From Plantactinospora sonchi (GTDB taxonomy: Bacteria; Actinomycetota; Actinomycetes; Mycobacteriales; Micromonosporaceae): a DNA stretch of 32,000 bases. The stretch covers positions 504,046 to 536,045 of the forward strand of contig NZ_JAZGQK010000003.1 of the NCBI RefSeq assembly GCF_036422035.1, written 5' to 3'. A model generated the notes under the pieces. It was given only the letters and a program-made list of their open reading frames with translations, did no database searches and was not told the DNA's origin. Shown here piece by piece: positions 9,646 through 32,000 of the stretch; the first letter of the stretch is position 1, and every line of letters starts with the position of its first letter. Position numbers and translations under genes: made by a program.

Positions 9646-9679
9646 GCTTGCCGGCGCCTACCTGTTTCGGGAGGCGGCC

Positions 9680-12259: not shown

Positions 12260-12364
12260 ACGCGGGGGCCGAGGTGCCCGATACTCGGCGACAACTGGCA
12301 CCGCGCCCGGCCTGACGAACGCGTCGCCGCTCTCACCGCCGGCCGGGGCCGCCCTTCCGGGGAG

Positions 12365-15032: not shown

Positions 15033-15307
15033 ACAGTGCCATCCGATCACCAAGAGGCGGCCCATACCTCGCCGGCTCCGCTGACAGCAAGAGCGGGGAT
15101 CTGTCACCCGTCTGTCACGGCGAGAGCTGCCAGCGCGGACAGTCCCCTGACAGATCCGGATCCCTTCCGACAGCACCCTTCCCGAGGTATCGTCCCGCGT
15201 CTTCGCCCGGGCGCTACCCACGCCTATGCGCGATCGTCCCATGATTACCAGTTTGAGAGGTACGGACATGATCTTCGTCCCCATGCAGGCCAGTTTGGCG
15301 GCCGTCG

Positions 15308-16760: not shown

Positions 16761-18229
16761 AGGGTTCCACCTTCAAACGTTGCGGCTGCCGCGACACCAC
16801 CTCGGGCCGGCGACTGGGGCGTTCCTGTCCCCAGCTCCACCGGCCCGGCGGTGGCTGGTCCCGCAGCCACGGCCAGTGGCACTGGCAGATCGAAGTTCCC
16901 GCTCGCGCTGACGGGAGTCGCCGGCCGCTGCGGCATGGCCCGTATCCGTCTCAGTCAGATGCCGACGCGGTTCTGGACCGCATCCGCGCCGCGCTCGCCG
17001 TCCCCGACCCCACCGACCCACACGCCACGGTCAAGACCGGCGACCTCATCGAAACCGCCGCCAAGACCGGCGCACCCATACCCACGCCGGATCAGATCCG
17101 CCGGGCGCTGCACCTGGACATCACCCCGACCGAACTGCCGACCCTGGGGGAGTACCTGACCGACTGGCTTGCCGGGCGTAAGAACATCAAGCAGGGCACC
17201 CTGCGCTCGTACGAAGGCCACGTCCGGCTGTACCTGATTCCGTACCTTGGCCACCTGCGCATCGACCGGCTCCGCCCCGGACACATCGACGCGATGTACG
17301 ACGCCATCGACGAACGCAACGCCACCATCGGCACTCTGCGCGCCAGCCGCGACCAAGCTAAGCGGGACCAGGTCAAGCGCCAGCGCATCGTCGGCCCGGC
17401 AACCCAGCACCGCATCCACGCCACACTGCGCAAAGCCCTCAACGACGCGATGCGCCGCCACCGGCTCATCGACACCAACCCCGCCGTCATGGTCGAACTA
17501 CCCCCGGCCCGGCCACCGAAGCCGACCATCTGGACCGACCAGCGCGTCAAGACCTGGCGCGACACCGGCAAGATCCCCAGCCCTGTCATGATCTGGACCC
17601 CCGAACAGACCGGACGATTCCTCGACCACACCCACGACGCCGGCGACAGGCTCTACGCCCTCTACCACCTCGTCACCTTCACCGGCCTCCGCCGAGGCGA
17701 AGCCTGCGGCCTGCACTGGGACAACGTCGACCTCGACGCCGCCACCCTCACCGTACGGTGGCAACTCGTCCAACACGGCTGGGTCACTGCGATCGACACT
17801 CCCAAGACCACCGACAGCGAGGCAGCCGTCGCTCTCGACGCCGAAACCATGGCCGTCCTGCGCGCCCACCGTGCCCGGCAACACCGCGAACGACTCGCGG
17901 CCGGTGCCGCCTGGATCAAGACCGGCCTGGTGTTCACCAACCCGACCGGCGGTCAGCTACACCCCGCCGACGTCACCGACCACTTCCACCACCTCGCCAC
18001 CCAAGCCGGCCTACCACCCATCCGCCTTCATGACCTTCGCCACGGCGCCGCCACCATGGGCCTCGCCGCCGGCGTCCAAATGAAAGTCATCTCCAACCGG
18101 CTCCGCCACTCCAGCCCTCACTTCACCGCAAAGTTCTACGGGGACGTACTGCCGGAGCTCTCTCACGCCGCTGCCGAAGCAACCGCGTCGGTCGTTCCGC
18201 GTCAACGTGGCGTGACATGGCCTACGTAG
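16757..18229 (+). CDS. int: tyrosine-type site-specific integrase
   Basis: The N-terminus KGSTFKRCGCRD...WHWQIEVP is the actinomycete integrase DNA-binding arm domain. Catalytic residues are in context: GLRRGEACGLHW (Arg), HDLRHGAAT (His-x-x-Arg) and RHSSPHFTAKFYGDV (His...Tyr). Confidence 0.9.
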   Translation: MKGSTFKRCGCRDTTSGRRLGRSCPQLHRPGGGWSRSHGQWHWQIEVPARADGSRRPLRHGPYPSQSDADAVLDRIRAALAVPDPTDPHATVKTGDLIETAAKTGAPIPTPDQIRRALHLDITPTELPTLGEYLTDWLAGRKNIKQGTLRSYEGHVRLYLIPYLGHLRIDRLRPGHIDAMYDAIDERNATIGTLRASRDQAKRDQVKRQRIVGPATQHRIHATLRKALNDAMRRHRLIDTNPAVMVELPPARPPKPTIWTDQRVKTWRDTGKIPSPVMIWTPEQTGRFLDHTHDAGDRLYALYHLVTFTGLRRGEACGLHWDNVDLDAATLTVRWQLVQHGWVTAIDTPKTTDSEAAVALDAETMAVLRAHRARQHRERLAAGAAWIKTGLVFTNPTGGQLHPADVTDHFHHLATQAGLPPIRLHDLRHGAATMGLAAGVQMKVISNRLRHSSPHFTAKFYGDVLPELSHAAAEATASVVPRQRGVTWPT

Positions 18230-18649: not shown

Positions 18650-20395
18650 ATGGCCAGCGCTCTGTTGACTGAACTCTACCCTGTTTCGCCGACGAACTTG
18701 CCAGCGGGCTGGGAGCTCAGGCCACTGGGTGAACTGATAACTGATGCGCGCAGCGGCTTCTCATCCGGTTCGCACAATAGCGATGGGGTTGGCATCCCGC
18801 ACTTGCGTCCGATGAATATTGACCGCGATGGCAGTGTAAACCTTAACCAAATCAAGTACGTCTCGGCGGATGCATCTACTCTCCGGCTCCAGCCAGGCGA
18901 CATCGTCTTTAACAACACAAACAGTCGCGAGCACGTCGGCAAGAGTGCCGTCTTCGACTTGGTTGACGCCGAGTGGGGCTTCTCTAACCACATAACTCGC
19001 CTTCGCTTGCACCAAGGGCTTCTACCCCAGTTCGTAGCCTGTCAGCTCCTCTATCTATGGGAGTGTGGATACTTCCGCTTTCATGCGAAGCAGCACGTGA
19101 ATCAAGCGAGCATCTCGACAAGTACGCTGACCAGCCGAGTCCCGCTGCTGGTTGCTCCGCTGTCCGAGCAGCAGGACTTGGTTGACCGTATAGAACGGAA
19201 CCGGTCCATACTTGACTCCATCACTACGGCGGTGGGCGGTGCGCGATCCCGACTCGGTCGTTTCGAAGACCAGACCATCCTTGATGCTATCGCTGGTCGC
19301 CTCGTGCCGACAGAGGCTGAGTTGGCAACGGCGAGGTCGGGCACGTATGTTTCAGGCAGCGAGCTACTCAAAAAGATAAACGATAGAGTAGCCGCCCAAG
19401 CGGGTGAGCTCTTCAATGCAAAGCCGCGGCGTTCATATAAGCGAAGCATCATCGATGTATCCACATCAAATGCTAGTGGTCTTCCCGATGGGTGGGTCCA
19501 GGCGCGGGTGGACGAGGTCGGCCTTGTGACATTAGGCAAGAAGCGGGAACCCAGCTCTCATTCGGGCCCATATATGAGACCCTATCTGCGCGTGGCCAAC
19601 GTCTACGAGGATCGCATCGATGTCAGCGACGTGCTTGAGATGAACTTCCCGCCGCAGGACTACAAGACGTACCGGCTGGAGTATGGCGACATACTCTTGA
19701 ACGAGGGCCAAAGTCCGGAGCTGGTTGGTAGGCCGGCCATGTATCGGGGGGAGCTGCCGGGCGGGTGCTTCCAGATGACGCTGCTTCGGTTCCGTGCGCA
19801 CCCAGGGGTGAGTGCGACGTTCGCTCTCTTGGTTTTTCGTGCCTACTTGCGCACCGGTCGGTTTCGAGAAGCCGCCCGATGGAGTACAAACATCGCACAC
19901 CTTAGTACGCAACGGTTTGCGGCCTTGCCGTTTCCTCTCCCGCCACTGGAGGAACAAGAGCGAATCGTTGAAGAAGCGACGCGGAGGCTTCGTGCTGCGG
20001 AGAACCTTTCGCAGGTGCTTTCGGCGATCGGCGATCGAGTGCTATTGGCCAGGCAAGCTTCCCTTAAGGCCGTCTTTCCTGGGGCAGTTGTTTATGGTGT
20101 CGTTCCCGCCATAGTCGAGGAAGCTGGCCAAAGTGAGTCTTCTCCCACAGGACGGAGCACGGCTCGACGATCACGTGCGGGTGGCCGAAGTGCGACAAGA
20201 GTCGACCTTCTGAAGGCGCTATCCGATGCCGAAACTGCGCTTAGGCCAGAGGAGCTATTCGACGCCTCCGGATATTCGGAGGAACTTATTGATGAGTTCT
20301 ATTCGGACCTGCGCAGACATATCTATTCGGGCAGCGTAAGGGAGGTTCGCGACGCTCATGGCGAGCCATTCCTAAATTTGGCGGAGCGGCAATGA
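18650..20395 (+). CDS. hsdS: type I restriction-modification specificity subunit (HsdS) with an extra C-terminal domain of about 100 aa
   Basis: There are two target-recognition domains (LPAGWELRPLGELI...GDIVFNNTNS and LPDGWVQARVDEVG...GDILLNEGQS). Each is followed by a conserved coiled-coil spacer (PLLVAPLSEQQDLVDRIE; PFPLPPLEEQERIVEEA). Confidence 0.85.
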   Translation: MASALLTELYPVSPTNLPAGWELRPLGELITDARSGFSSGSHNSDGVGIPHLRPMNIDRDGSVNLNQIKYVSADASTLRLQPGDIVFNNTNSREHVGKSAVFDLVDAEWGFSNHITRLRLHQGLLPQFVACQLLYLWECGYFRFHAKQHVNQASISTSTLTSRVPLLVAPLSEQQDLVDRIERNRSILDSITTAVGGARSRLGRFEDQTILDAIAGRLVPTEAELATARSGTYVSGSELLKKINDRVAAQAGELFNAKPRRSYKRSIIDVSTSNASGLPDGWVQARVDEVGLVTLGKKREPSSHSGPYMRPYLRVANVYEDRIDVSDVLEMNFPPQDYKTYRLEYGDILLNEGQSPELVGRPAMYRGELPGGCFQMTLLRFRAHPGVSATFALLVFRAYLRTGRFREAARWSTNIAHLSTQRFAALPFPLPPLEEQERIVEEATRRLRAAENLSQVLSAIGDRVLLARQASLKAVFPGAVVYGVVPAIVEEAGQSESSPTGRSTARRSRAGGRSATRVDLLKALSDAETALRPEELFDASGYSEELIDEFYSDLRRHIYSGSVREVRDAHGEPFLNLAERQ

Positions 20396-21933
20396 GGCTT
20401 GAGAGTCTGTATATCCGGTCTTGGAAGAATCTGCAAGATTTTGAAATCCACTTCTCGGATGTTCAGACTACCGTGCTGGTGGGACAGAATGGAACAGGGA
20501 AGTCAAATGTACTGGAAGCCCTGATCATAATTTTCCGGGATCTAGACCTTGGAGCGCCTCCGCTCTTTGCGTTCAAACTTGCCTACCGATGCAAGGGCAA
20601 GTCAATCCGCGTGGATTGCGATCCGGCACGTCGGGGCCGCACTGCCCTTATTGAGGTCGACGGTGAACGGTGGCGTGCTGATCGATTCTCCCGTAAGGGA
20701 GGCGGGGAGTACCTTCCTGGTTTTGTTTTTGGCTACTATTCAGGCCCGAGCAATCGAATGGAACGGCACTTCGAAAGCCATCAGATCCGTTTCGCAAGCG
20801 ATCTCCGTGAAGGAGCAGACAGGCCTCTCCGCCCATTGCTATACGCGCGCCTTGTTCACAGCCAGTTCGTTCTGCTGTCCTTCTTCGCTCGCGAATCCGG
20901 TGACCGTGAAGTTCTCACACGCTTCCTGCGAATTGTGGACCTTGATTCGGTATTGTTCGTCCTAAAAAGGCCGTCATGGTTCAACCCGAACAGAGGCGCA
21001 GACCCTACGAACCCAGGGGACCCCCGGATCTGGGGTGCACGCGGCGTGGTGCGTGACTTCGCCTCTCGCCTGTACCGTATTGCATTAGCGCCTATGCGGG
21101 GACGCCGGGGCTCTGAGCGCCTCTACCTGTATCTGAAAGACAAGAAGGACTTGCTTGCCCTTGCTGACGGCTACGATAACCAGGCCGAATTCTTCAAGGC
21201 ACTTGAGAGCTTGTATATATCTGATCTAATCGAGGATGTTCGAACCCGGGTCACCATAAGTGGCAGCGATGATGCTCTTACGTTTCGCGAGTTAAGCGAG
21301 GGCGAGCAGCAGCTCCTGACGGTATTAGGTCTGCTTAGGTTTGTAGAGGGTCAGGAGGGGCTCATTCTGCTTGATGAGCCCGACACGCATCTGAACCCGT
21401 CCTGGAGCTTGGACTACACCTATCTCCTGAAGACACACGTGTCTGATCCAGATTCAGCCAATATCGTGATGGCCACGCACGACCCGCTGGTTGTGTCGGC
21501 ACTTACCCGCGATGAAGTCCGCGTAATGAGACGAGGCGAAGCGGACAGGATCCATGCAGCGGTTCCTGAAGAAGATCCTAAGGGCATGGGTGTGGCCGGC
21601 CTTCTGACGAGCGAGCTCTACGGGCTGAGATCGCAACTCGATCGAGAGACACTCAACGCGCTGGATCGCAAGCGCGACCTAGCATCGCTCGACACGTTGA
21701 CGCCAGAGCAACGCGCCGAGTTGTCGTCACTCAATGAGTATCTGGCTAACCTTGACTTTTCGAGGACCACCCGCGATCCGCTCTACAAGCCCTATGTCTC
21801 GGCTATGACCGTACTGGAAAATCACCTTGCCTTGCGGAAGGCTACTTTAACGCCGGGGGAGATCGACCGGCGGCAAGAGTTAGCCAACGAAGTGGTCCGA
21901 TTGCTGCTTGAAAGGCTGGAGGCGGAGCCGTGA
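20392..21933 (+). CDS. ptuA: ABC/AAA_21-type ATPase, Septu PtuA-like
   Basis: Motifs: Walker A GQNGTGKSN, ABC signature LSEGEQQLL, Walker B/D-loop LILLDEPDTHLNP and H-loop MATHDP. Its ATG overlaps the hsdS stop (ATGA). It is followed by an HNH gene, as in Septu. Confidence 0.7.
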   Translation: MRLESLYIRSWKNLQDFEIHFSDVQTTVLVGQNGTGKSNVLEALIIIFRDLDLGAPPLFAFKLAYRCKGKSIRVDCDPARRGRTALIEVDGERWRADRFSRKGGGEYLPGFVFGYYSGPSNRMERHFESHQIRFASDLREGADRPLRPLLYARLVHSQFVLLSFFARESGDREVLTRFLRIVDLDSVLFVLKRPSWFNPNRGADPTNPGDPRIWGARGVVRDFASRLYRIALAPMRGRRGSERLYLYLKDKKDLLALADGYDNQAEFFKALESLYISDLIEDVRTRVTISGSDDALTFRELSEGEQQLLTVLGLLRFVEGQEGLILLDEPDTHLNPSWSLDYTYLLKTHVSDPDSANIVMATHDPLVVSALTRDEVRVMRRGEADRIHAAVPEEDPKGMGVAGLLTSELYGLRSQLDRETLNALDRKRDLASLDTLTPEQRAELSSLNEYLANLDFSRTTRDPLYKPYVSAMTVLENHLALRKATLTPGEIDRRQELANEVVRLLLERLEAEP

Positions 21934-22754
21934 TCTTCATCGATCTAGTCAGGCTTGAGCAGCGGGTGGAGTTGTCATGGAAGGAAAAAGCTGCGGCGGC
22001 GCTTCTTGACGTCCGTGCTGCAACGACAAGCGACGATCGCAAGAAGGTTTTGACCAAGCACGCAAGTCTCTGGGCGGAAGTAAAGCATCATTTGGCGGGG
22101 GCGAGCACAGGCAAGTGCTGGTACTGCGAAACTCGGGACGTGCGGTCCGATGCTGCAGTTGATCACTTTCGTCCGAAGAGTAAGGTCGAGGAAAGCCCGG
22201 AACACGAAGGTTATTGGTGGCTTGCCTTCGATTTCCGCAATTATCGTTATTGCTGCACTTTCTGTAACTCAACCCGTGTGGACCGTGTGGGCGGCAGTAG
22301 AGGCGGTAAGCAAACGCACTTCCCCCTTCTAAACCCAGAGGACCGTGTCTTCGAGGAGGGTGATATTGCGGTCGAACGCCCGATGTTGTTGGACCCGATA
22401 CGAGCTACGGACCCGGCCCTTCTGTACTTCCGGGAAGATGGCGTTCCTGAGCCAAGGTACGGGGGCGAAAAAGGATTACGAGCGAGCAAGTCTATTGAAA
22501 TTTACCACCTTAATCACACGGAACTCGTAGAAGCGCGTCTTGAAACGCTGAATCGGGTCCGGGAGTTGATTTCTCTTGGTAGAAGATACTATGATAGCTG
22601 GCTCCTCGACGGATCGGACGAGCCTGCTTTTGAATCCGTCATCGCCCAACTCAAGAAGCTCTGTGCCCCAGGGGCCGAGTATTCCGCAGCGGTCAGGGAC
22701 TTGGTAAAAGGTTATCGAGATTCTGAGCATACGTGGATCGACCAAGTTTTCTGA
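21930..22754 (+). CDS. ptuB: HNH endonuclease, Septu PtuB-like (TIGR02646-type)
   Basis: CWYCE...DHFRPKS...YRYCCTFCNSTR forms a Cys4 + His-Asn-type HNH core. Its GTG overlaps the ptuA stop (GTGA at 21930-21933). Confidence 0.7.
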   Translation: MIFIDLVRLEQRVELSWKEKAAAALLDVRAATTSDDRKKVLTKHASLWAEVKHHLAGASTGKCWYCETRDVRSDAAVDHFRPKSKVEESPEHEGYWWLAFDFRNYRYCCTFCNSTRVDRVGGSRGGKQTHFPLLNPEDRVFEEGDIAVERPMLLDPIRATDPALLYFREDGVPEPRYGGEKGLRASKSIEIYHLNHTELVEARLETLNRVRELISLGRRYYDSWLLDGSDEPAFESVIAQLKKLCAPGAEYSAAVRDLVKGYRDSEHTWIDQVF

Positions 22755-22770
22755 TAGAAAGAACGAGTAG

Positions 22771-24267
22771 ATGAGTAGCGCCCGAGACATCGTTCAGAAG
22801 CTTTGGAGCTATTGCAGTATTCTGCGGGATGACGGCCTGTCCTACCCTGACTACGTCGAGCAGTTAACGTACTTGCTCTTCCTCAAGATGGCACACGAAA
22901 CTGCCACGACTCAGAGCGGCGTTAATATTGTACCGAACGGTATGGACTGGCCGAGCCTTGTGGAACGCCGGGGGGATGATCTCCACCGACACTACGGTGA
23001 AATCCTGAAAACTCTAGGCGCCTCTGATGGGATGCTGGGCTTAATCTTCCGCGACTCTCGGAATAAGATTAAGGACCCACATAAGCTGCGGCTGCTCGTT
23101 GCGGATCTTATCGATGCTAGGCATTGGAGTGCGCTCGATATAGATGTGAAGGGTGATGCTTACGAGGGCCTGCTCGAAAAAAACGCCCAAGACACCAAAA
23201 GTGGCGCCGGTCAGTACTTCACGCCGCGACCCGTTGTAGACGCTATTGTTGAGTGCATTGACCCGAAGCCGGGGGAAAAAATCCTTGACCCTGCATGCGG
23301 AACCGGGGGCTTCTTAATTTCGGCCGCTCGTCATCTCAGGATGCGCAATCCGGACATGACGCCGACGGAGGAAGAGCACCTACGTCTGCACGCTATTCGG
23401 GGAGGGGAGCTGGTAGGTGAGGTTACGCGGCTTGCTGCCATGAACCTCCTTCTCCACGGCATAGGTCCGAACGCTGGCACAGCCGAGCCGCCGGTGGCAA
23501 CACAAGACAGCCTTGCAGTCCCGCCGAAGGAACTGTACGACGTCATCATCACGAACCCGCCTTTCGGGAAGCGCTCGAGCGTAACTCTTGTGACGAAGGC
23601 TAAGGAAGGTGACGATGAGCGCCGTCGTGTGCTGCGCGATGACCTATGGGTCTCGACTTCGAACAAGGAGCTGAATTTCCTCCAGCATGTTGCGGTGAGC
23701 TTGTCGCAGGGTGGGCGGGCCGCAGTTGTTGTTCCTGACGGCGTTCTCTCGGGTCCTGGAGCGGGTTCTGCAATCAGAAGGCGGCTACTCGAAACATTCG
23801 ACGTCCATACGCTTCTGCGGCTGCCTGCTGGCATTTTCTATGCGGCAGGAGTGAACGCGAATGTTCTCTTTTTTGATCGCAAGTCGCCTGGTCAAGGCTC
23901 GGAGCGAGGACGCTTGTGGGTATACGATTTGCGCACAGATAAGCGATTCACGCTAGTAGGTCGTCGCCTGAGCTCCGCTGACTTGACAGAGTTCACGAGA
24001 CTTTATGAGCCGGCGGATCGTGCGAAGCGGGAGGACTCAAGGGCGGAGGATCCGGTAGGCGGTAGGTGGCGAAGCTTTAGCGTCGATGACATACTCAAGC
24101 GGGAAGATTGCAGCCTGGATCTGTTTTGGCTTCCGTCGCAAGGCAACGCTATGGCGACTCAGAACTTTGACGAGATTGTAGGCGATCTTGTGGCTGATTT
24201 GCAGTTTGCGTTGGCCGAGGCTGCGAAGCTCATGCCAGGGGACGAGAGGCGCAGGGAAGAGCGGTGA
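22771..24267 (+). CDS. hsdM: type I restriction-modification N6-adenine DNA methyltransferase (HsdM)
   Basis: HsdM N-terminal domain (IVQKLWSYCSILRDDGLSYPDYVEQLTYLLFLKM), SAM-binding motif I (ILDPACGTGGFL) and catalytic motif IV (ITNPPFG). Confidence 0.9.
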   Translation: MSSARDIVQKLWSYCSILRDDGLSYPDYVEQLTYLLFLKMAHETATTQSGVNIVPNGMDWPSLVERRGDDLHRHYGEILKTLGASDGMLGLIFRDSRNKIKDPHKLRLLVADLIDARHWSALDIDVKGDAYEGLLEKNAQDTKSGAGQYFTPRPVVDAIVECIDPKPGEKILDPACGTGGFLISAARHLRMRNPDMTPTEEEHLRLHAIRGGELVGEVTRLAAMNLLLHGIGPNAGTAEPPVATQDSLAVPPKELYDVIITNPPFGKRSSVTLVTKAKEGDDERRRVLRDDLWVSTSNKELNFLQHVAVSLSQGGRAAVVVPDGVLSGPGAGSAIRRRLLETFDVHTLLRLPAGIFYAAGVNANVLFFDRKSPGQGSERGRLWVYDLRTDKRFTLVGRRLSSADLTEFTRLYEPADRAKREDSRAEDPVGGRWRSFSVDDILKREDCSLDLFWLPSQGNAMATQNFDEIVGDLVADLQFALAEAAKLMPGDERRREER

Positions 24268-24418
24268 TGCTGCGACGGCCCTTGTCCTGTCTATGGCTGC
24301 CGACCGGCGCCCCGCAGGAGGCGGTGATCCGTCGGCTGTCGGCTTCCGTTGACGGCAGCGGTCACCGCGTAGTGAGTAGAGCCGGATGGAGCGAGATCCG
24401 CACATGCGGTTCGGGAGG

Positions 24419-24474
24419 CAGGCGGCAAAAGCAGACGGGCGGGGTGCTCTGCGGGTGCTCGGGACGCGTTGGAC
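24419..24474 (+). repeat. repeat copy 3: CAGGCGGC + 33-nt GGGTGCTC..CGTTGGAC motif (no hairpin)
   Basis: gggtgctctgcgggtgctcgggacgcgttggac (24442-24474) matches copy 1 at 29/33 positions and copy 2 at 28/33. It is preceded by ggttcg-N7-ggcggc, the same spacing as the T-loop/acceptor of the tRNA fragment at 6198-6216. Confidence 0.6.
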
Positions 24475-24698
24475 GGGCATGGCCGTCGAGGGCCTGTGCT
24501 GTATGCGTGTGGGCGTGGGAGTCAGGCCGAACTGGTGACTCTGTGCGGACCGGGTGTGTCGGAGTTGCTGGTCCAGGTGAGCTTCCTGGGGTGGCATGCG
24601 CAAAGTCCGCTGGTCGAGAGAGCACGTGGGTCACCAAGACTCGCCTGCCGCTCGGCGGCTGCCTTGGCCGATCGGGCAAACCGGCCAGGGGTGTTTCC

Positions 24699-26309
24699 TC
24701 ATACCGCTGCCGCTTGGGCGATGTCCTTCGGGCAGATGGAGCGCAGAGGGCAGGTGCCGCAGGCGGGCGTGCCTGGTCCGCACCAGCGTCGTCCGATCAG
24801 CCAGGCGGGGTAGTCCAGCTCTCCGGGCCGCTCTGGGTGTAGCCATCGCGCGACCTCCACCATGTGGTCGAGGTCGTCGCGCTCGGCGAGTCGTGTACGG
24901 AGGAATACCCGCCGAACATGTACGTCGTAGGCGATGTCCGTCCCGGACAGCTCCCGGATTGGCACTGCCAGGTCGCGGGCCAGGATCTCTACTGCCATCG
25001 CTGACTTCTTCTGCGCGATGCCGGGGAACCTCCGCAGCCGGGTGGCCAGATCGGTCGCGCGGGGTTCGTCCGCCCAGATCCGGCCGGCGTCGCCGCCATA
25101 TTCGTTCACGACGATGATGGCGGCGGCGACCAGCCATCCGGGCATGTTGTTGATGAACCGATGCAGTGCCGTCGGCTGGGCGACGGCAGCACGTACCTGC
25201 TCTGGTTCGGACGCCATTCGTGCTGGGTCGAGGTGTCCGAGGCGCTGATGCAAGTCGTACGGTGCCTTCCAGGCCCGCTCGGCGGGTATGCCTTGGTCGA
25301 AGATGACAGCCAGCAGGAACGCGAACGGGTCGGTCAGGATCAGCGTGTTGGCTTCGGGGTGCGGTGTGAATCGGGGTGGGGTGCCGGCCCGTTCGGCCTG
25401 ATGTTCCCGCCCGTACTTCAGCAGGGCAGTGACGATGGCACGCGCATCTGGTCGGACGGGAACGGGTGTGCCGGTGGGTGCGAGCGGCCGGATGGTCTCC
25501 TGGGGCTGCTTGATGAGGGCTACGGGTTGTTCTGGCGCTGGTGGTTGGGGCTGCCGGTCGTACCAGGCGAGCTGTTCGCCGAGCGGTAGCCCGGCCAGCG
25601 GTCGGCGAACCGCCGCTCCGGCCTGGGTGAGCAGTGGCACGATTGCTTGCGCGTATTCGTCGCCGGCGTGGATTTCGACCACGCGGTCGCGCACCTGGCT
25701 CTCTGCGCGCATCAGCTTGGCCGCGACCCATTGGCCCCATACGCGCCGGTAGTCCTTGCTCTGCTCGGCGAACGCGGTGTCGTACGGTGCGAGCACCGTC
25801 TCGGGCAGCACCAAGCCGTCCTCGGCGCTCAGGATGTAGTAGCGGCGGGCGTGCCGTTCGGCGTAGGCGCGGCGGCGGATGAACAGCGGCGAGACGTACA
25901 GGTCGCGGGCCGGCGCAGGGTGGTCGAGTTTCGTCTTGACGCAGCCGACCAGCGCGATGTCGGCCCGGATCTCGCCAGGCTCGGTCGGCCTTGATTGTCC
26001 GCTTGGGGGCTGCGCCGGGATCGCCGGCTGGGCTGTGGAGGAGGGCGATCGGCTGGTGTCGGCGAGCGTGTACCGGCCGCGCCCGACCCGGATGAGCGGC
26101 GTCCCGCACGGGCTCGACGGGCCACCGGTGGTATCCCGGGTCATTCCCTGGATGACCGGGCCGAGCGACTGTACGCGCTGCGTCGGGTCGAGCCGTTGGA
26201 CCTCGTCGATCAGCTCCGCTCGGCTGAAGTCGAACTTGTGTTTCGTGAGCTGGCGTGCTGCGGTGAGGATGAGCTGCCAGGCCGGCTGGTCCGTCACTGT
26301 CGCTTCCAT
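24699..26309 (-). CDS. fusion protein: N-terminal wHTH-like module + DUF6884-like domain + EndoIII-type HhH-GPD domain with a [4Fe-4S] cluster loop
   Basis: Central part: IALVGCVKTKLDHPAPARDLYVSPLFIRRRAYAERHARRYYILSAEDGLVLPETVLAPYD (DUF6884-like, from memory). C-terminal part: an HhH element (LRRFPGIAQKKSAMAVEIL), YDVHVRRVFLRTRL (compare VDTHIFRV of EndoIII) and CGPGTPACGTCPLRSIC, which is exactly Cx6Cx2Cx5C. Confidence 0.7.
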   Translation of the reverse strand: MEATVTDQPAWQLILTAARQLTKHKFDFSRAELIDEVQRLDPTQRVQSLGPVIQGMTRDTTGGPSSPCGTPLIRVGRGRYTLADTSRSPSSTAQPAIPAQPPSGQSRPTEPGEIRADIALVGCVKTKLDHPAPARDLYVSPLFIRRRAYAERHARRYYILSAEDGLVLPETVLAPYDTAFAEQSKDYRRVWGQWVAAKLMRAESQVRDRVVEIHAGDEYAQAIVPLLTQAGAAVRRPLAGLPLGEQLAWYDRQPQPPAPEQPVALIKQPQETIRPLAPTGTPVPVRPDARAIVTALLKYGREHQAERAGTPPRFTPHPEANTLILTDPFAFLLAVIFDQGIPAERAWKAPYDLHQRLGHLDPARMASEPEQVRAAVAQPTALHRFINNMPGWLVAAAIIVVNEYGGDAGRIWADEPRATDLATRLRRFPGIAQKKSAMAVEILARDLAVPIRELSGTDIAYDVHVRRVFLRTRLAERDDLDHMVEVARWLHPERPGELDYPAWLIGRRWCGPGTPACGTCPLRSICPKDIAQAAAV

Positions 26310-29300
26310 TCAGGGGCCGGTCGCAGGTCCAGGATGTCGGGTACGCCCGCCGCGCCGGTCTCTCGTCCTCGGAGCAGGTTCAGCAGGTCCTCCTGCCTGG
26401 GCTGGCCGAACGCCAGCCGGTACATCACCAGGTCCGACTTGAGCCGGTCGAGTTTCGCCTGGTCGCGGCTGAGTGGGTACGGCAGGACGTGCCGTTCGAT
26501 CTTCGCTGGCCCGGGGAACACCCAGTACGGCGCGAAGTCGCCAAGCTCTCCAGAGACCGCTCGTGCCGCGTCGTACAGGGCCTTCCACACGTCCGGCTCG
26601 CGGGAGCGCAAGGCCTCAGCGCGGTGTGCGGCGGCGACGTTGCGGCGTACGGCGTGCCCGCCGAACCGGTGCACTCGGCCCTCACGCTGCTCGAAGTCGA
26701 CGGGGTTGGCGGGGGTGTTCCAGTGCACGACGGCTGAGCACCACTGGTGGAAGTCGATGCCTTCCTGGCCGGCGCTGGTGGTGGCGACAACGAACGGCCA
26801 GAACGGGCTGTTGAAGGCTCGACGGACGGCCTCCTTGCGGTTGACCTGGGATTGTTCCTCGCCGCGGCCGCCGTAGCGCAGCGCGAACCGGCCGGGCAGT
26901 TTGATCCGCTCGTCGGGGTGGTGCGGGTTGAAGGCTTCGTACGTCGACGGTCGACTGGCGATCGCCTGCCGCGCCTCGTCGGCGAGCCGGCAGAGTTCCT
27001 CGTCGTCGAGGCGGGTGTCGGCAGCACCGCTGCGCAGGGTGTGCAGGTGCTCGTCGAGGACGGCCTGCAGACCGCCGGCGGCGCAGTACCGCAGCACCGC
27101 CCGCCAGTAGACCGAGCCCATCGACAGGCCGTCGAGCAGCTGCGCGGATTCCGGCCGGTTGAAAAGAGACCGCAGCCCGTTCGCCAGGACCGCCGCGGCG
27201 CGCCAGTGCCCTGCGGGTGTGACCGCATCGCCGGGGTGGATCAGCCGGGACAGTGCCCGCCAAGCAATGTTGCCCGGCCCATGCAGGCCGATCTCCGCGA
27301 CGCTGCCGAGCAGACCGTCGAGATGGTCCGTTGCCGGGTAGCGGGCATCGCTGGCCAGCTCGCGGACTCGCGCCACGTGCCGGTCCAGGCCGGTGGCCGT
27401 TCCGTCCTCTTCGGCCGAGGTGCCCAGGGCGGCAGCGGCGTCGTCTAGGCCGGGGTCGGCGCCGGGCCACCGGAAGACCAGCTCCCACGGCTCGGCCGGG
27501 CTCGCTTCGATGGCCTCCGCATCGCCCGAAGCGCGAGCAAGCAGCCGTTCCCGCACCTCGCGTTCGAACACGTCGAGCGGTGCGGTCTCGTCGGGCCGTC
27601 GGCGGGCCAGGGCCAGCGGATCGCACAGCGCGGCCAAAGCGGGATGGGGCCAGAACAGCGCCAAGACGCTCATCGCCGCCGGTCGGCCGTGTTCCAGTCG
27701 GTAGTCGAGATGCCGGTGCCCTTCCCCGGCGGCGCCGAGCCGGCGTTCGGCTTCGTAGCTGAGTAGCCCTGCCACCGCGGTGGGTGTGGCGTTCCAGGAC
27801 GAGAACAGCAGCCGCTTGGTGATGCCGTCCCGCGCTGCGGTGGTGAACGGCTCGCCGAGCGCGTGGTAGGGCATGGATGGGGGCAGCCACAGCAGTCGCC
27901 ACCAGCCCTGGTCGACGGTGTCGGCGGCGAGCTGCCGGAGCCGGGCGTTGCCGAGATCGACCAGTTCCCGTCGGTTGATCGCCTCGGCATCGAGCAGCTG
28001 GGTGGAGGCCAACAGCGCGGACACCTCGGGGTGCGGCTGGCCGTCGAGCGCGGCGCGAACCTTGTCACCGAGCTGGTAGCCGTCGAGGAAGTTGAGGAAG
28101 TACGGGGCGGACTTCCAATACTCGACCGTCATCGGAGCGCCGACGACACCGGCAATCTTGCGCATCGCCACGTAGCTGCGGACATCACGCACGTCGAGGT
28201 CATCGGCCACGGTGAGGTGCTCCCGCAGCATGCCATCCTGCATCAGCGCGGGCCGTTCCGTACGACACATGACCCGCAGCAGCAGGCCGCGCAGCCAGTC
28301 GCGCAGGTCACCGCAGGGCTCGCCGCGCACCAGCGCGTCCCGGTACGCCTCGAACGCCTTCGTCACGTCGGCGTGCCACGACTCGTCGTCGCTGAGGAAC
28401 CTCAGCACCTGCCGGAAGTCGCGGTAGTGGTCCTCGCCGGCGGTGGCCTCCTCGGCGAAGGTGAACGGCTTGTACGGGGTGGCCGACAGCAGCAGCACCC
28501 GGGCGGCCCGGTAGTCGAACAGGTGTCGGGCGAGGTCGGCGCCCTCGCCGCCGTGGGGGTCTAGCAGCTCCCGAAACCGTTGGAACTCGTCGAGGATGAT
28601 CAGGTCGGGTTCGAGAACCTCGACGCCGGCGGTCGCGAGCGTGGTCCGGAGAGCACCGGTGAGCGTGCGTGCCGTTTCCCGTAGTGCGTCCGGTAGGGCG
28701 GGGCGGCGGCCGATGCCGTCGAGCAGCGCGTCGAATTCGTGGAGCAGGCCACGTCGGCGGGCGCGGCGGAGGAACTCGCGGGTGATGGTGTGATCGAGCT
28801 TTCCGTCGAGCTGCGCCCATAGCCGGTTGCACTGTTCCTCGAACCGGCCGGGGCTTGCGACGCCGGCCTGCAGGGCGCGTAGCGCGGCCCGGGTCCGCCA
28901 ACCGTTCCATGAGCTCGCCTGTTCGAGGATCAGGAACAGCAGCGCCCGTTCCTCGGCCGTACCTGTGCGCCACCCCTGGTCGAACGAGGTGCCCGGGGTG
29001 AACGCCACCAGGTTGATCGGCTTGCCCCCGGTGGTGGGTGCGGCGTTGAGCTGGTCGGCGTGCTTGGCGAGCAGGGTGAGCCGGCTGGAAAGCGTGACGG
29101 TTTCGTCGGGGGTGACCCGGAGCCGGGCGATGTTCTGCCGGGCGACATCTTGGTTGGAGCAGACGTAGACGACGTCGACCCGGTCCACGCTGTCGTCGTC
29201 CTGCAACCGCTGCAAGGTCTCAGCGATGACGCCTCGGGCGACGACGCTCTTGCCGAGCCCGGTCTCGTCGGCGACCAGGAACCGGCGAGTCGGATCGGTG

Positions 29301-29389
29301 CCGAAAAACCGGTCGATCACGTGCGCGACGGTGGCGCGTTGGAAGTCTTTTAAGCCGGCCATGACCGGCCCGGCGTCGTACCAGTTCAC
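26294..29389 (-). CDS. SF2 helicase, SNF2/RapA-like
   Basis: Motif I is FLVADETGLGKS, motif II LIILDEFQRF, motif III LLLSATPYKP, and motifs V-VI are VVATTSAGQEGIDFH...FEQREGRVHRFG. The preferred start is GTG at 29389, which overlaps the PLD stop (GTGA). The ORF is open to 29440. Confidence 0.85.
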   Translation of the reverse strand: MNWYDAGPVMAGLKDFQRATVAHVIDRFFGTDPTRRFLVADETGLGKSVVARGVIAETLQRLQDDDSVDRVDVVYVCSNQDVARQNIARLRVTPDETVTLSSRLTLLAKHADQLNAAPTTGGKPINLVAFTPGTSFDQGWRTGTAEERALLFLILEQASSWNGWRTRAALRALQAGVASPGRFEEQCNRLWAQLDGKLDHTITREFLRRARRRGLLHEFDALLDGIGRRPALPDALRETARTLTGALRTTLATAGVEVLEPDLIILDEFQRFRELLDPHGGEGADLARHLFDYRAARVLLLSATPYKPFTFAEEATAGEDHYRDFRQVLRFLSDDESWHADVTKAFEAYRDALVRGEPCGDLRDWLRGLLLRVMCRTERPALMQDGMLREHLTVADDLDVRDVRSYVAMRKIAGVVGAPMTVEYWKSAPYFLNFLDGYQLGDKVRAALDGQPHPEVSALLASTQLLDAEAINRRELVDLGNARLRQLAADTVDQGWWRLLWLPPSMPYHALGEPFTTAARDGITKRLLFSSWNATPTAVAGLLSYEAERRLGAAGEGHRHLDYRLEHGRPAAMSVLALFWPHPALAALCDPLALARRRPDETAPLDVFEREVRERLLARASGDAEAIEASPAEPWELVFRWPGADPGLDDAAAALGTSAEEDGTATGLDRHVARVRELASDARYPATDHLDGLLGSVAEIGLHGPGNIAWRALSRLIHPGDAVTPAGHWRAAAVLANGLRSLFNRPESAQLLDGLSMGSVYWRAVLRYCAAGGLQAVLDEHLHTLRSGAADTRLDDEELCRLADEARQAIASRPSTYEAFNPHHPDERIKLPGRFALRYGGRGEEQSQVNRKEAVRRAFNSPFWPFVVATTSAGQEGIDFHQWCSAVVHWNTPANPVDFEQREGRVHRFGGHAVRRNVAAAHRAEALRSREPDVWKALYDAARAVSGELGDFAPYWVFPGPAKIERHVLPYPLSRDQAKLDRLKSDLVMYRLAFGQPRQEDLLNLLRGRETGAAGVPDILDLRPAPEWKRQ

Positions 29390-31137
29390 GCGCGCACCGT
29401 CCCCGTGATCGTCTCGCGTGCCGCCGTGATGACCCGCCACAGATCGGAAAAGCCCGCAGGCAGCAGTCGTTTGCTGTCACCTCTGGCTTCGATTCGGGCC
29501 ACCAACCGGGCCAGGTCGTCGAGCTGGTCCGGCCGGTCGACGAGGGCGTTGAGCAGCAGCTCGAGGATCCCGGTCCCGCCGGCGCGCCAGGCACCCGACC
29601 CGCCGGTGTCGCCGCCTGCGGCGGCGGCAGCCTCGGTGCCCAGGCCGAGGATCAGCAGCAGAAATCGCAGGAACTTCTCCGGGGTGTCGATCTGCTGGGC
29701 GAGGACGTGGTCGAGCCGGTGCGCGGGGTCGCCGATCAGGGTGGCGAGGACGACGGTCTGCTCTCGGCCGGTGGTGTCCTCGGCGGTGATGACGATGAAC
29801 GGGGTGATGTCGGCCAGCGCAAGTCCGGTGAACACGGCAGCCACCGGCTGCCCCGCCACGAGCGGCACCGCCTCACCGCGACGGGTGTGCACCTGCGCGG
29901 TGATCCGCACCCCCGGCAGATCGGGCAGGGCGTCCTGTGAGGTGAGCTCGATGCCGTAGCTGTCGGCTTCGGTGGTGACGGTGGCCGTCAGTGGGATGGC
30001 CGCGATGTCGCGGATCAGGTCCCGCAGCATGGTCGTTTCCGGCTCCGACTCGGTGGCATCGTGGCGGTCGTAGGGTTCGAGGATTCCGCGGAGACCTGCT
30101 TCCGGGCCGAGGACGGCGTTGATGCCCCACTGGGCGCGGCTGCCGGCCAGTTCCACCAACAGTTCGACGTTTCCGCCGAACGCCGCGTCGGTGGCGTTCG
30201 CGGAGCCGAGCAGGACCCGTGCCTGGTGGCCCTTCTCCACCACGTACACCTTCGCGTGCAGCCCGTGCAGCACCTCCTGGCCCGACGGCGTCCCCTCGGC
30301 GGGCAGACCGGCCAGGGCGCTGACCACGAACGCCTCCAACCCCGCCACCGTCTCCTCAGGTAGGCAGTCGAGGGTCTCCTGCCGGCTCACCAGGGCCAGC
30401 TGCCCGCTCGGTGCGCACCGGTCCAGCCCGCCCGGCGTGCAGAACGGCGAGATGACGAGGTGACGCGTGCCCTCGAAACGTGGCAGGCGAACACCGGGCA
30501 CGCCCAGCGCGTGGAAACTCATCTCCCGGGCTCTGTCGGGGAGTTCCCACTGGGCCCGGCGCAGGTCCTCGTTTAGCGCCTCGATCGCCGCCTGCCGGTC
30601 CGGCGGTAGTGGCGCGACCGCCAGCCGCACCGCATGCCGCAGGAGATCAGACAGCGGCCGGTTGTCCGCCTTCGGCCGTGGGCCGATAACACCGTCCAGA
30701 CGCAGGCACACATCCCAGCTGCGATCCTTGGTCAGGTTCCGGCTGAGCACCAGCAGCCGCAGGGACGTCTCGCCGGTTGTCTCGTCGTGGAAGCGCAGCG
30801 CCCACACCTTCGGGTGGAACAGGTGCCCGGGCTTGGGCCGGCGTACCTGGTGCACCATGGGCTCGACGAACGCCAGCAGCGCGGACTTCGTCGGGGGCAC
30901 GGCGATCTGCCCCGCTTGGCAGAACACGTCAATGCGGTCGGCGCAGTACCGTACGCCCTCCATCACCGTGATCGGGTCCGTCGACTCCCGCATACCGTGG
31001 GCGGCGAAGGCCAACGGGGCGACCAGCAGGCTCTCCAGGTCCAGGGTGAACGTCAACGCCACGGCTCGGGACAGTCGCGCGCCCGCTGGTGGGCGCAGCG
31101 CGTCAAGCAGCAGGGCGCGGGAGTCAGGCGCGAGCAC
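29386..31137 (-). CDS. phospholipase D-family (two HKD motifs) putative nuclease
   Basis: HKD 1 is LFHPKVWALRF...LLVLSRNLT. HKD 2 is GLHAKVYVVEKGHQARVLLGSANATDAAF. The ORF is open to 31242. GTG at 31137 gives a 14-nt overlap with the upstream gene rather than 119 nt. Confidence 0.8.
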   Translation of the reverse strand: MLAPDSRALLLDALRPPAGARLSRAVALTFTLDLESLLVAPLAFAAHGMRESTDPITVMEGVRYCADRIDVFCQAGQIAVPPTKSALLAFVEPMVHQVRRPKPGHLFHPKVWALRFHDETTGETSLRLLVLSRNLTKDRSWDVCLRLDGVIGPRPKADNRPLSDLLRHAVRLAVAPLPPDRQAAIEALNEDLRRAQWELPDRAREMSFHALGVPGVRLPRFEGTRHLVISPFCTPGGLDRCAPSGQLALVSRQETLDCLPEETVAGLEAFVVSALAGLPAEGTPSGQEVLHGLHAKVYVVEKGHQARVLLGSANATDAAFGGNVELLVELAGSRAQWGINAVLGPEAGLRGILEPYDRHDATESEPETTMLRDLIRDIAAIPLTATVTTEADSYGIELTSQDALPDLPGVRITAQVHTRRGEAVPLVAGQPVAAVFTGLALADITPFIVITAEDTTGREQTVVLATLIGDPAHRLDHVLAQQIDTPEKFLRFLLLILGLGTEAAAAAGGDTGGSGAWRAGGTGILELLLNALVDRPDQLDDLARLVARIEARGDSKRLLPAGFSDLWRVITAARETITGTVRA

Positions 31138-32000
31138 CAGCAGCCTCCGGCAGGTCGGCGGCGCAGCCGTCGTGGATGTCGGCGAGGATCCGGCGTACCT
31201 GCGGCCACCGGAACACCAGTTGCCGGCTGCCCGACGCGCCACTCCACGTGCGGAGCAGCTTGTCGTTGACCAGCCGCGACTGGCCCTTCTTCACCGACCG
31301 TTCCCGCTCGGCCACGAGAGCCCGCAGGCCTGGGTCGATGGCCGCATCACCGGCTGCTCCGCTGGTCACCGCGTCGAGCCACCGCTCGATGAACCGGTGC
31401 GCCGCCGCGTTCGTGGCGATTCGCGGGTTCTGCTGGATCAACCGGCTCCACATCCCCGACCGCTCCCAGCCCTTGAGGCCGGGCAAGGCCGACACTCGAT
31501 CACTCCACTTCCGCAGGGCGTCGCGGTACACGTCCGTCGGGTTCTCGTGCTCGGTCAGACCAGCTTGTTCGTACCGCTCGGCCACGAGCAGGTTGTACAG
31601 CAACGCTGCGCCATGCATCGCCAGCGAGAAGCGCTGCGCGTCCCGGACCAGCGAACCGACCGGCTCCGGCGCGGCGAGCGCCGCCGGCTCCCACGGCACT
31701 TGGCCGTCGGTAACCGGCCGATGCTCGGGTTGGAGCAGGTACGCCAACAGTGTGGCCGGCGCTGCGGCAAGAAGCCTCTCCCGCAGCCAGCGGGCCTCCT
31801 GCGGATACAGCGTCAGTCCGCCGTCGACCTCATTCGGGAAGTTCGCCGGTGCTCCTGGCATCGTCGGCTGCCAGGCACCGCTCGACTGGTCGGCCAGTTC
31901 ATCGGCCTCGGACGAACCGGAAGTCACCCGTCGGCCCGGGGTGTCGTCGTCACCCGTGCGGATGCCGTACCGCAGCAGCGCCGCCGCGTAGATGGCCGAT
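31124..32000 (-). CDS. hypothetical helical protein, first visible gene of the PLD-helicase operon (5' end outside the window)
   Basis: The frame stays open from 31124 to the window edge (SAIYAAALLRYGIRTGDDD...), so the GTG at 31927 is not necessarily the start. Third-position G/C is high throughout. I recognise no family motif (RLVNDKLLRTWSGASGSRQLVFRWPQVRRILADIHDG at the C-terminus). Confidence 0.6.
   Translation of the reverse strand, partial: SAIYAAALLRYGIRTGDDDTPGRRVTSGSSEADELADQSSGAWQPTMPGAPANFPNEVDGGLTLYPQEARWLRERLLAAAPATLLAYLLQPEHRPVTDGQVPWEPAALAAPEPVGSLVRDAQRFSLAMHGAALLYNLLVAERYEQAGLTEHENPTDVYRDALRKWSDRVSALPGLKGWERSGMWSRLIQQNPRIATNAAAHRFIERWLDAVTSGAAGDAAIDPGLRALVAERERSVKKGQSRLVNDKLLRTWSGASGSRQLVFRWPQVRRILADIHDGCAADLPEAAGARA

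Follow-up and report, generated by a model that had tools for sequence, protein, structure and literature searches.

We found that the Azaca defense operon of Plantactinospora sonchi ends in a fourth gene, which overlaps zacC and encodes a fusion of three domains: a small N-terminal DUF7669 domain, a DUF6884 module, and a C-terminal domain of the endonuclease III (EndoIII) type, i.e., a helix-hairpin-helix (HhH)-GPD domain with a [4Fe-4S] ligand loop. The operon lies in a 32,000-nt stretch of contig NZ_JAZGQK010000003.1 (positions 504,046 to 536,045), which is referred to here as the window and numbered from its first letter. We lean, with slightly better than even confidence, toward the fusion protein being a modular single-chain DNA-targeting defense enzyme that was added 3′ of zacABC, in other words a restriction-glycosylase add-on to Azaca. 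Its most likely task is to attack unusual bases in invading DNA and not routine repair.

An Azaca operon with a coupled fourth gene

An original prediction, made from the sequence alone, had described the fusion as the last gene of a nuclease-helicase operon. This proved correct, as ZacC, ZacB, and a partial ZacA are encoded upstream of it, contiguously on the (−) strand (Table 1), and the operon is the already named Azaca system. The three Zac proteins of the window are bona fide, with the canonical gene order and overlapping junctions; specifically, ZacC contains a Walker A motif (GLGKS) and DEFQ, and ZacB contains the HAK...GSAN motif in addition to a weak match to Pfam PLDc_2. While the described system has three genes, here a fourth is attached: the TGA stop codon of zacC lies inside the first codons of the fusion gene (junction ...GAATGGAAGCGACAGTGACG), and zacC and the fusion are therefore translationally coupled. 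The fusion protein matched no PADLOC Zac model. It is missing from canonical Azaca loci, and the fusion is therefore an accessory gene of the operon and not a ZacA, ZacB, or ZacC component.

Close relatives place the origin of this arrangement within one Azaca lineage. Micromonospora humida (L088) and Micromonospora palomenae (L089) carry an overlapping cassette, DUF429-zacA-zacB-zacC-fusion, amid unrelated flanks, and the nucleotide synteny of the window with its Micromonospora relatives runs from the window end to ~24515, i.e., 185 nt beyond the fusion stop codon. In Natronosporangium (L090), whose ZacC is 78% identical, zacABC is present without the fusion and homology ends at the end of zacC, which argues that the fusion is an add-on gained by one lineage.

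The cassettes of these relatives differ from the described system also in the DUF429 gene that precedes zacA. This gene was seen at L001 (3188-3937), L088 (3172-3942), and L089 (3440-4003) and at none of the other sampled Azaca loci; its end overlaps the zacA start in L088 and L089, the loci with gene models, and the counterpart in the window would lie past position 32000. In M. humida, a zacC fragment joined directly to a fusion-gene fragment (L088:19440-20441) is located ~8 kb from the intact cassette and adjoins an hsdM gene 90% identical to the hsdM of the window. It looks like a second, decayed version of the same zacC-fusion/hsdM arrangement.

The open reading frame (ORF) of the fusion encodes 536 amino acids (aa) from an ATG start, with a GTG at codon 5 as an alternative start giving 532 aa. 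The 532-aa NCBI product from P. sonchi (P0001), annotated from this GTG four codons downstream, is 100% identical to the translation of the window. Other long ORFs that overlap the gene, e.g., 24631-26109 on the (−) strand (492 aa), are alternative-frame shadows typical of DNA with a GC content of ~69%. The ratio of nonsynonymous to synonymous substitution rates (dN/dS) against orthologues was 0.21-0.38 overall, 0.14-0.15 for the glycosylase domain, and 0.14-0.41 for DUF6884, with the linkers more relaxed, and the fusion is thus a real gene under purifying selection. We found no terminator, promoter, or hairpin downstream of it (positions 24200-24760 scanned).

The translation contains every motif on which the original prediction had relied (RVGRGRYTLAD, GCVKTK, LYVSPLF, YILSAEDGLV, PYD, FPGIAQKKSAMAV, and YDVHVRRV), and the exact Cx6Cx2Cx5C loop was located at C510-x6-C517-x2-C520-x5-C526. 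The predicted layout itself, a DUF6884 module joined to an EndoIII-type HhH-GPD/[4Fe-4S] domain and preceded by a small N-terminal domain, was borne out by profiles, fold models, and alignments.

A divergent HhH-GPD domain at the C terminus

The best profile match of the C-terminal domain was NCBIfam TIGR03252, named 'HhH-GPD-type base excision DNA repair protein' (aa 316-449, E 6e-26), which covered profile positions 6-141 of 189 with a score of 91.2 bits, below the cut-off of 136.5. Pfam HhH-GPD (PF00730) matched weakly (E 0.014; 16.2 bits versus a cut-off of 26.2), and the NCBIfam nth model (TIGR01083) reached only 16.1 bits versus 211.7. Because the cut-offs of PF00730 and TIGR01083 were not reached, the domain is classed as a divergent member of the HhH-GPD superfamily and not as an Nth orthologue. 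In comparison, TIGR03252 proteins of actinobacteria include stand-alone relatives of 250-260 aa in Acidimicrobiia and other genomes; these sit in a conserved metabolic synteny that the fusion does not share.

Modeling of aa 285-536 with AlphaFold2, based on 114 homologues, gave a predicted local distance difference test (pLDDT) score of 96. All of the top 40 Foldseek matches in the PDB were EndoIII, MutY, NTHL1, or MIG structures (E ~5e-6 to 1e-4, template modeling [TM] score 0.6-0.74, identity 18-22%), among them 1orn; the best were E. coli EndoIII (2abk; E 4.8e-6, TM 0.63/0.73), MutY, Deinococcus EndoIII, and MIG. HMMER alignments, with the profile as well as with single sequences, placed D462 on D138 of E. 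coli EndoIII (IAVDTHIFRV) and on the equivalent Asp of Bacillus stearothermophilus EndoIII. The Cx6Cx2Cx5C loop is identical in pattern to that of EndoIII and MutY, gave a weak match to Pfam EndIII_4Fe-2S, and has all four Cys residues invariant in 114 homologues; H464 is invariant across homologues as well. Fold, catalytic Asp alignment, and Fe-S loop together sustain the assignment of the domain to HhH-GPD.

The HhH element contributes a candidate lyase residue. Reading FPGIAQK against LPGVGRK of EndoIII puts K434 at the position of K120, the lyase nucleophile, by motif register; HMMER left this stretch unaligned because the fusion, unlike EndoIII, has 10 residues inserted between its HhH Lys and the Asp. 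The two proteins also differ in that the fusion carries ~300 extra N-terminal residues (DUF7669 and DUF6884).

The DUF6884 module and its interchangeable partners

Pfam DUF6884 (PF21818) matched over its full length (1-135/135; E 3.8e-46, 157 bits versus a cut-off of 30), and the two motifs that define the family, CxxxK and LSAxxG, are present and conserved in the fusion as GCVKTK and LSAEDG. Homologue alignments revealed invariant C123 and K127 (CxxxK), S161-A162-x2-G165 (LSAxxG), Y176-D177, and H214, with E212 nearly invariant (≥90%), and the invariant residues are kept also in family members with other C-terminal domains. The N terminus is more variable, as homologues carry DUF7669, DUF7662, or neither. 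PADLOC PDC-M57A, a DUF6884 model that PADLOC lists as an untested candidate system, matched aa 117-253 (E 6.7e-29), i.e., the DUF6884 part only.

The AlphaFold model of aa 105-265 (pLDDT 94) had YaaA (5caj; E 4.6e-5) as its sole significant PDB match, and DUF6884 is thus modeled with a YaaA/DUF328-like fold. This agrees with Pfam, which ascribes to DUF6884 a YaaA-like 'cantaloupe' fold and the motifs CxxxK and LSAxxG and also notes that the domain co-occurs with other domains and may bind DNA lesions (PMC11701544). At the sequence level, ILSAEDGLVLP..PYD of the fusion corresponds to MLSGLYGVLRP..PYR of YaaA. A search of the fusion protein with Pfam PF03883 (YaaA/DUF328) gave no match, and phmmer aligned DUF6884 with YaaA only weakly (E 0.53). 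DUF6884 is also shorter than YaaA (~135 versus ~260 aa) and has its own invariant Cys-x3-Lys and a conserved Glu-x-His, in which the invariant His is Leu in YaaA.

Members of the YaaA/DUF328 family act on or bind DNA bases. DpdC, which belongs to this family, hydrolyses dPreQ0 to dADG within DNA as part of the Dpd restriction-modification (RM) system, and YfjM, a DUF6884 protein of Bacillus subtilis, was enriched on DNA baits with abasic sites or RNA bases (PMC10220248). The DpdC models of PADLOC matched DUF6884 at a marginal level (E ~1e-3 over 59 aa).

The relation to DpdC raises the question of whether the fusion could serve self-marking or self-editing in an RM-like Azaca system, with a DpdC-like DUF6884 altering a host base, the glycosylase aiding exchange or proofreading, and ZacABC sparing the chromosome so marked. 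In addition to the shared fold, the chemistry of DpdC on a base already in DNA, and the weak DpdC matches, this idea could draw on the partial match of ZacC to DpdE models and on a DNA methyltransferase gene found after zacC on a Shinella plasmid (see below). We regard it as quite unlikely: Azaca functions with its three genes and no module of this kind, neither a base-synthesis nor a transglycosylase (DpdA-like) gene is located nearby, the fusion mostly occurs without Azaca, the DpdC similarity is marginal, and the other domains that DUF6884 is joined to, GIY-YIG and phospholipase D (PLD)-like ones, point to DNA damage and not to marking.

These partners emerged from an exhaustive HMMER search with the DUF6884 domain, which returned 5,597 clusters at 50% identity out of 1.84 billion cluster representatives. 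Among the best 150 of these 5,597 representatives, 48 carried GIY_YIG_2, 16 the HhH domain of the window type (by local phmmer), 3 a PF21790 OGG-like domain, and 1 a PLD-like MIT_C domain. GIY-YIG is thereby the commonest partner of DUF6884 in this set (48 of the 134 representatives without the HhH domain), and the N-terminal domain of these 134 was DUF7662 in 41 cases and DUF7669 in 22. For example, a 441-aa DUF7662-DUF6884-GIY_YIG_2 protein is encoded on Rhodococcus plasmid pLW3 (L098:4728-6053, [+] strand), and also at L100, next to a type I RM system together with integrases or insertion sequence elements.

Modification-dependent restriction enzymes are likewise built from a constant front end and interchangeable back ends that damage DNA. 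Effector swapping of this kind suggests that DUF6884 is a DNA reader or base-flipping module, and the shared layout speaks for a division of labor in which recognition, and perhaps an initial chemical step, comes from DUF6884 and the damage from the C-terminal domain. The proposal that the protein is a sensor or effector acting on modified or damaged foreign DNA therefore gains independent support from the GIY-YIG, OGG-like, and PLD-like partners, with the function itself being a prediction.

Stand-alone DUF6884 proteins were also seen in phages (Caulobacter phage Kronos, Halobacterium phage ChaoS9, and Mycobacterium phage Mendokysei, from BFVD) and on many conjugative sphingomonad plasmids, amid runs of small ORFs of unknown function (plasmid loci L097 and L099); DUF6884 thus occurs on both sides of host-parasite conflicts. 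We searched for the fusion itself in the same kinds of replicons. Neither the fusion nor relatives of ZacC were found in IMG/VR (2.9 million viral contigs), and a phage-borne origin was rejected on this ground; tblastn against 72,556 plasmids matched the DUF6884 part only and never the HhH fusion.

This distribution bears on the idea that the fusion is a counter-defense or establishment factor of a mobile element, e.g., by removing or concealing the marks of DNA that enters the cell. The phage and plasmid DUF6884 proteins would fit such a role, as would the integrase/relaxase element located 6-10 kb away in the window. Given the absence of the HhH fusion from the viral contigs, the restriction of the plasmid matches to DUF6884, and the position of the fusion inside a defense operon, overlapping zacC, we consider this role very improbable.

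A family of fusions with variable neighborhoods

A word-indexed protein search (E ≤ 1e-5) returned at least 476 relatives of the fusion, mostly from Actinomycetota and Chloroflexi genomes and metagenomes, with a common DUF6884 and HhH core. The original prediction had called the domain fusion unusual; it is indeed unlike a housekeeping gene, but with a family of this size it is neither rare nor a one-off. When 185,579 species, each represented by one genome, were scanned with a pattern-based method, 123 matches were confirmed, a lower bound that includes HhH-only relatives, and the best 80 of them comprised fusions, ~440-aa proteins with another N terminus, and stand-alone proteins of ~260 aa. 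At six loci (L023, L035, L037, L043, L048, and L050), HhH and DUF6884 were encoded by separate adjacent genes, and some copies of the fusion were truncated (P0009, P0053, and P0056).

Many family members have an extra conserved domain of ~120-150 aa between DUF6884 and the glycosylase domain, with the motifs FxxRWP...GW...VRHG...YG (e.g., P0044 aa ~255-410 and P0079 aa ~165-330). No Pfam model matched it, and the window protein lacks it.

Neighbor clustering revealed that the stand-alone proteins keep a conserved neighborhood, while the fusions share almost nothing, the exceptions being Azaca genes (four loci), NERD-UvrD helicases, and a DEAD helicase. The two nearest genes per side at 32 fusion loci, in counts that are approximate owing to our own crude ORF calling, short contigs of metagenome-assembled genomes (MAGs), and small samples, included DEAD/Helicase_C/ResIII (4), UvrD, Mrr_cat, NERD, NA-iREase1, and integrase families (2 each), BrxC (1), and some housekeeping genes; the ORF calls, filtered by GC content at third codon positions, missed or mis-stranded several neighbor genes. 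A control census of 16 stand-alone loci turned up no restriction-type families; the neighbors there were transporters, 2-thiouracil desulfurase, and reductases. Individual fusion loci carry a Mrr_cat/NA-iREase1 gene 60 bp upstream of the fusion (L081), fragments of an MmeI-type methylase and a GIY-YIG gene (L082), AbiE, type III RM, and T5orf172 genes (L083), or Zac genes, a GIY-YIG and C5-methylase pair, and an AspBHI-like Mrr (type IV) enzyme (L010).

The claim that the gene is not a housekeeping one was upheld, since it is patchy, missing from the Azaca relative L090, truncated in places, and variable in its neighborhood, while the conserved metabolic synteny belongs to its stand-alone relatives. 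Unlike EndoIII, it is an accessory gene in an operon with a defense system and not a core gene. A housekeeping nth was ruled out on patchiness, truncated copies, variable flanks, and the failure of the nth model.

Host repair could take another form, in which the fusion is a base excision repair enzyme: DUF6884 would sense abasic or oxidized lesions for processing by the EndoIII-type domain, and the adjacency to Azaca would be due to chance within a variable region or would serve to mend collateral damage inflicted on the chromosome by ZacB and ZacC. The C-terminal fold and residues are those of EndoIII and MutY, the nearest NCBIfam family bears the name of a repair protein, and the stand-alone relatives keep a housekeeping synteny; moreover, YfjM binds abasic and RNA-base baits, YaaA is an oxidative-stress protein, and housekeeping genes do occur among the fusion neighbors. 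Weighed against these points are the patchy distribution with truncated copies and variable flanks, the translational coupling to zacC in a mobile cassette, the Mrr/AspBHI-type modification-dependent enzymes among the neighbors, and the pairing of DUF6884 mostly with GIY-YIG and also with PLD-like effectors, which cut DNA and would make little sense for lesion repair. On this balance, we judge a repair role rather unlikely, and a defense role for the fusion remains the preferred reading.

Glycosylase and DUF6884 genes at other Azaca loci

Outside the Micromonospora/Plantactinospora clade, the fusion adjoins Azaca in two distant lineages with differing arrangements: it is convergent with Azaca in an actinomycetotal MAG (L010), and in a Chloroflexia MAG (L028) it is located upstream of zacABC genes that may be degraded. 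We also sampled seven other actinobacterial or metagenomic Azaca loci (L086, L092, L101, L102, L103, L090, and L091; Table 1). At two of them, the neighbor of zacC is a putative PF21790 OGG-like DNA glycosylase, the two proteins being 52% identical to each other, and OGG-like proteins are thus a second kind of glycosylase that recurrently adjoins Azaca. The side-by-side DUF6884 and GIY_YIG_3 genes at L101 represent, beside Azaca, the DUF6884-nuclease fusion in split form, and the 510-aa gene at L103 is another lineage-specific 'fourth gene' of the system. Uncharacterized genes after or near zacC in L092, L101, L102, and L103 had no phmmer similarity to the fusion, OGG-like, or DUF6884 sets, and nothing comparable was found beside Azaca in L090 and L091. 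In the reverse search, metagenome contigs with ZacC yielded two loci only, one of them with an OGG-like neighbor. Since DUF6884 is rare among the cluster representatives searched (5,597 of 1.84 billion), coincidence hardly accounts for its recurrence next to Azaca.

A 900-aa site-specific DNA methyltransferase is encoded 30 bp after zacC on a Shinella conjugative plasmid (L095:9042-11744, [+] strand); it is possibly another accessory to Azaca.

Table 1. Coordinates of the fusion gene, its parts, the Azaca genes of the window, and genes adjoining Azaca at other loci
Feature	Locus	Coordinates	Strand	Evidence and remarks
Fusion gene, DUF7669-DUF6884-EndoIII-type HhH-GPD/[4Fe-4S]	window	24699..26309	(−)	ORF translation, domain matches, identical NCBI protein, dN/dS
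DUF7669 domain, aa 9-82	window	26064..26285	(−)	Pfam E 3e-16; 1.2e-17 on isolated segment
DUF6884 module, aa 118-252	window	25554..25958	(−)	Pfam, PADLOC PDC-M57A, AlphaFold model, invariant columns
EndoIII/MutY-fold glycosylase domain, aa ~300-536	window	24702..25412	(−)	TIGR03252, AlphaFold model and Foldseek, profile-to-PDB alignments
HhH element FPGIAQKKSAMAV, aa 428-440	window	24990..25028	(−)	Sequence; K434/K435 invariant across 25 and 114 homologues
Catalytic Asp D462 in IAYDVHVRRV	window	24924..24926	(−)	HMMER alignment to EndoIII Asp; invariant
[4Fe-4S] ligand loop C510-x6-C517-x2-C520-x5-C526	window	24732..24782	(−)	Sequence; alignment to EndoIII/MutY cluster loops
zacC, Azaca superfamily 2 (SF2) helicase	window	26294..29389	(−)	PADLOC ZacC 1110 bits, aa 22-1041; longest ORF to 29440; orthologues 1031 aa
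zacB, Azaca PLD-family nuclease	window	29386..31137	(−)	PADLOC ZacB E 1.4e-170; longest ORF to 31242; orthologues 583 aa
zacA (DUF6361), 3′ part only, runs past window end	window	31124..32000	(−)	PADLOC ZacA E 2.1e-64, profile positions 160-394 of 396; Pfam DUF6361 E 4e-21
PF21790 OGG-like glycosylase	L086, soil metagenome contig	2467-3189	(−)	Beside zacC, E 1.7e-39
PF21790 OGG-like glycosylase	L092, Micromonospora sp. WMMC415	11773-12492	(−)	Beside zacC, E 1.3e-42
Separate DUF6884 (156 aa) and GIY_YIG_3 (160 aa) genes	L101, Actinopolymorpha pittospori	1479-2827	(−)	Side by side, divergent from zacA
Protein with weak MGMT-type DNA-binding match	L102			Azaca neighbor
Unannotated 510-aa gene	L103, Microlunatus-type contig	9174-10706	(+)	Overlaps zacC stop

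Proposed mode of action

Azaca has been experimentally validated, and the sole biochemical clue to its target choice is the preference of BmAzaca, which requires ZacABC, for T4 DNA with glucosyl-5-hydroxymethylcytosine (glucosyl-hmC; bioRxiv 10.1101/2025.07.10.664194). This preference makes a link with the recognition of modified DNA plausible. In the scheme that we propose, DUF7669 and DUF6884 would bind DNA and flip out or recognize a non-canonical base or lesion, a step suggested by the fold, by the action of DpdC on a base in DNA, by the YfjM baits, and by effector swapping. The EndoIII-type domain, in which the relevant residues are observed, would then excise the base via D462, and the strand would probably be nicked by beta-lyase chemistry via K434, because this Lys is retained where EndoIII has K120. 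The replication of invading DNA would be blocked by the abasic sites or nicks so made, as in the Dag and Brig defenses. The leading candidate substrates would be hypermodified phage bases, e.g., 7-deazaguanines or modified pyrimidines. Alternatively, DUF6884 might capture the abasic product covalently or tightly via its Cys/Lys, a role that we propose because YfjM was pulled down on abasic baits.

The weakest step concerns cooperation with Azaca. The overlapping stop and start codons establish co-translation of the fusion with ZacC, and the fusion might either widen the target range of Azaca or make lesions or nicks on modified DNA for the ZacC helicase and the ZacB nuclease. A bolder version, which we put forward tentatively and hold to be well short of probable, is that DUF6884 is a reader of non-canonical bases or an abasic-trapping enzyme (via Cys/Lys) that defines a type IV-like restriction family with swappable effectors and, in actinobacterial Azaca, acts as the missing sensor or entry-site generator. 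Conversion of modified bases into abasic sites or nicks that load ZacC and ZacB would explain the preference of Azaca for hypermodified DNA.

Several observations weigh against an Azaca-linked defense enzyme. BmAzaca cleaves T4 DNA with three proteins only (bioRxiv 10.1101/2025.07.10.664194), and at four Azaca loci on plasmids of proteobacteria and haloarchaea the system consists of just its three genes and lacks a glycosylase. Conversely, Azaca is missing from the vicinity of ~30 of the 32 species-level fusion loci outside the Micromonospora clade, and the fusion can thus function without Azaca; its place in the operon may reflect no more than co-regulation, and the adjacency of DUF6884 to Azaca could still reflect general clustering in defense islands. 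The neighborhood evidence is itself approximate, and some fusion neighbors are ordinary housekeeping genes, e.g., SecY and glutamine synthetase; close relatives of the glycosylase domain also look like housekeeping genes. Repair would fit equally well with the ties of YaaA and YfjM to oxidative stress and lesion binding. Lastly, the family function (glycosylase activity, Fe-S content, and interaction with ZacABC) is predicted from sequence and models, and the equivalence of K434 with EndoIII K120 is likewise proposed at the motif level only.

Relation to known defense and restriction enzymes

Among known antiviral proteins, the HhH glycosylases Dag1 and Dag2 are a close parallel. They use a Lys-Asp pair and protect against phages with 7-deazaguanines (Getz et al., bioRxiv 10.1101/2025.10.29.685425), occur in mobile or defense contexts like the fusion, and, for Dag1, have been reported to cleave bifunctionally. 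Compared by description only, they differ from the fusion in being integron-cassette proteins with 7-deazaguanines as their target; the paper mentions no DUF6884, and its main text contains neither 'iron-sulfur' nor 'Fe-S'. Brig3 with BapA, an operon of a glycosylase and a base-processing hydrolase, and Brig1 set a precedent for the pairing of a DNA-base-processing module with a glycosylase against hypermodified phage DNA. Getz et al. assign Brig1 and Brig2 to the uracil-DNA glycosylase family, and they have no homology to the fusion domains. BapA was ruled out as a relative of DUF6884, as it is an ASCH protein.

Type IV modification-dependent enzymes share the reader-plus-effector layout with interchangeable DNA-damaging domains, and Mrr/AspBHI-type members are among the fusion neighbors; neither a DUF6884 reader nor an Fe-S glycosylase effector was found in type IV or base-excision restriction enzymes in the literature searched. 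PabI-type enzymes have a fold unrelated to the fusion domains. Like the proposed activity of the fusion, the R.PabI family achieves restriction by base excision, and these enzymes are sequence-specific and methylation-sensitive (PMC10273834).

Azaca and the use of HhH glycosylases as antiviral effectors (Dag) are already described. In the literature searched, no paper mentions DUF7669, DUF7662, or TIGR03252, and none connects Azaca with glycosylases or, in a phage context, YaaA with GIY-YIG. Likewise, we did not find there the DUF6884-EndoIII/Fe-S fusion as a family, the way it is wired to zacC, the recurrence of glycosylase or DUF6884 modules beside actinobacterial Azaca, or the effector-swap pattern.

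Other genes in the window

Convergent with the fusion gene lies an operon of hsdS, ptuA, ptuB, and hsdM (18650-24267, [+] strand), in which type I specificity and methylase subunits surround the Septu PtuA ATPase and the PtuB HNH protein; the window contains no hsdR. The GC content of this operon (54-58%, versus ~69% around it) suggests recent acquisition, and the operon may be a type I methylase/Septu hybrid. Just upstream of the defense genes, positions 14143-18229 ([+] strand) encode a Replic_Relax protein, a DUF2637 protein, and a tyrosine integrase and resemble an integrative element of actinomycetes at the border of the island. No tRNA gene marking an integration site was found anywhere in the window. 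A further region of lower GC content (56-59%) at 4000-6000 includes an ORF (4742-5482) with a weak prohead-protease match (E 7e-5). The window also carries a radical SAM gene (10206-11327) and GntR/UTRA regulators (62-958 and 2159-2977).

Significance

Antiviral DNA glycosylases (Brig and Dag) have been described very recently and are so far single-domain proteins, and the locus analyzed here links the themes of glycosylase defense and Azaca. If the fusion were an ordinary repair enzyme, the finding would reduce to an unusual gene fusion. The behavior of DUF6884 as a swappable, reader-like module suggests a concrete, testable function for this large and uncharacterized family (5,597 clusters), which may also yield new modification-specific glycosylases and nucleases for mapping modified bases.

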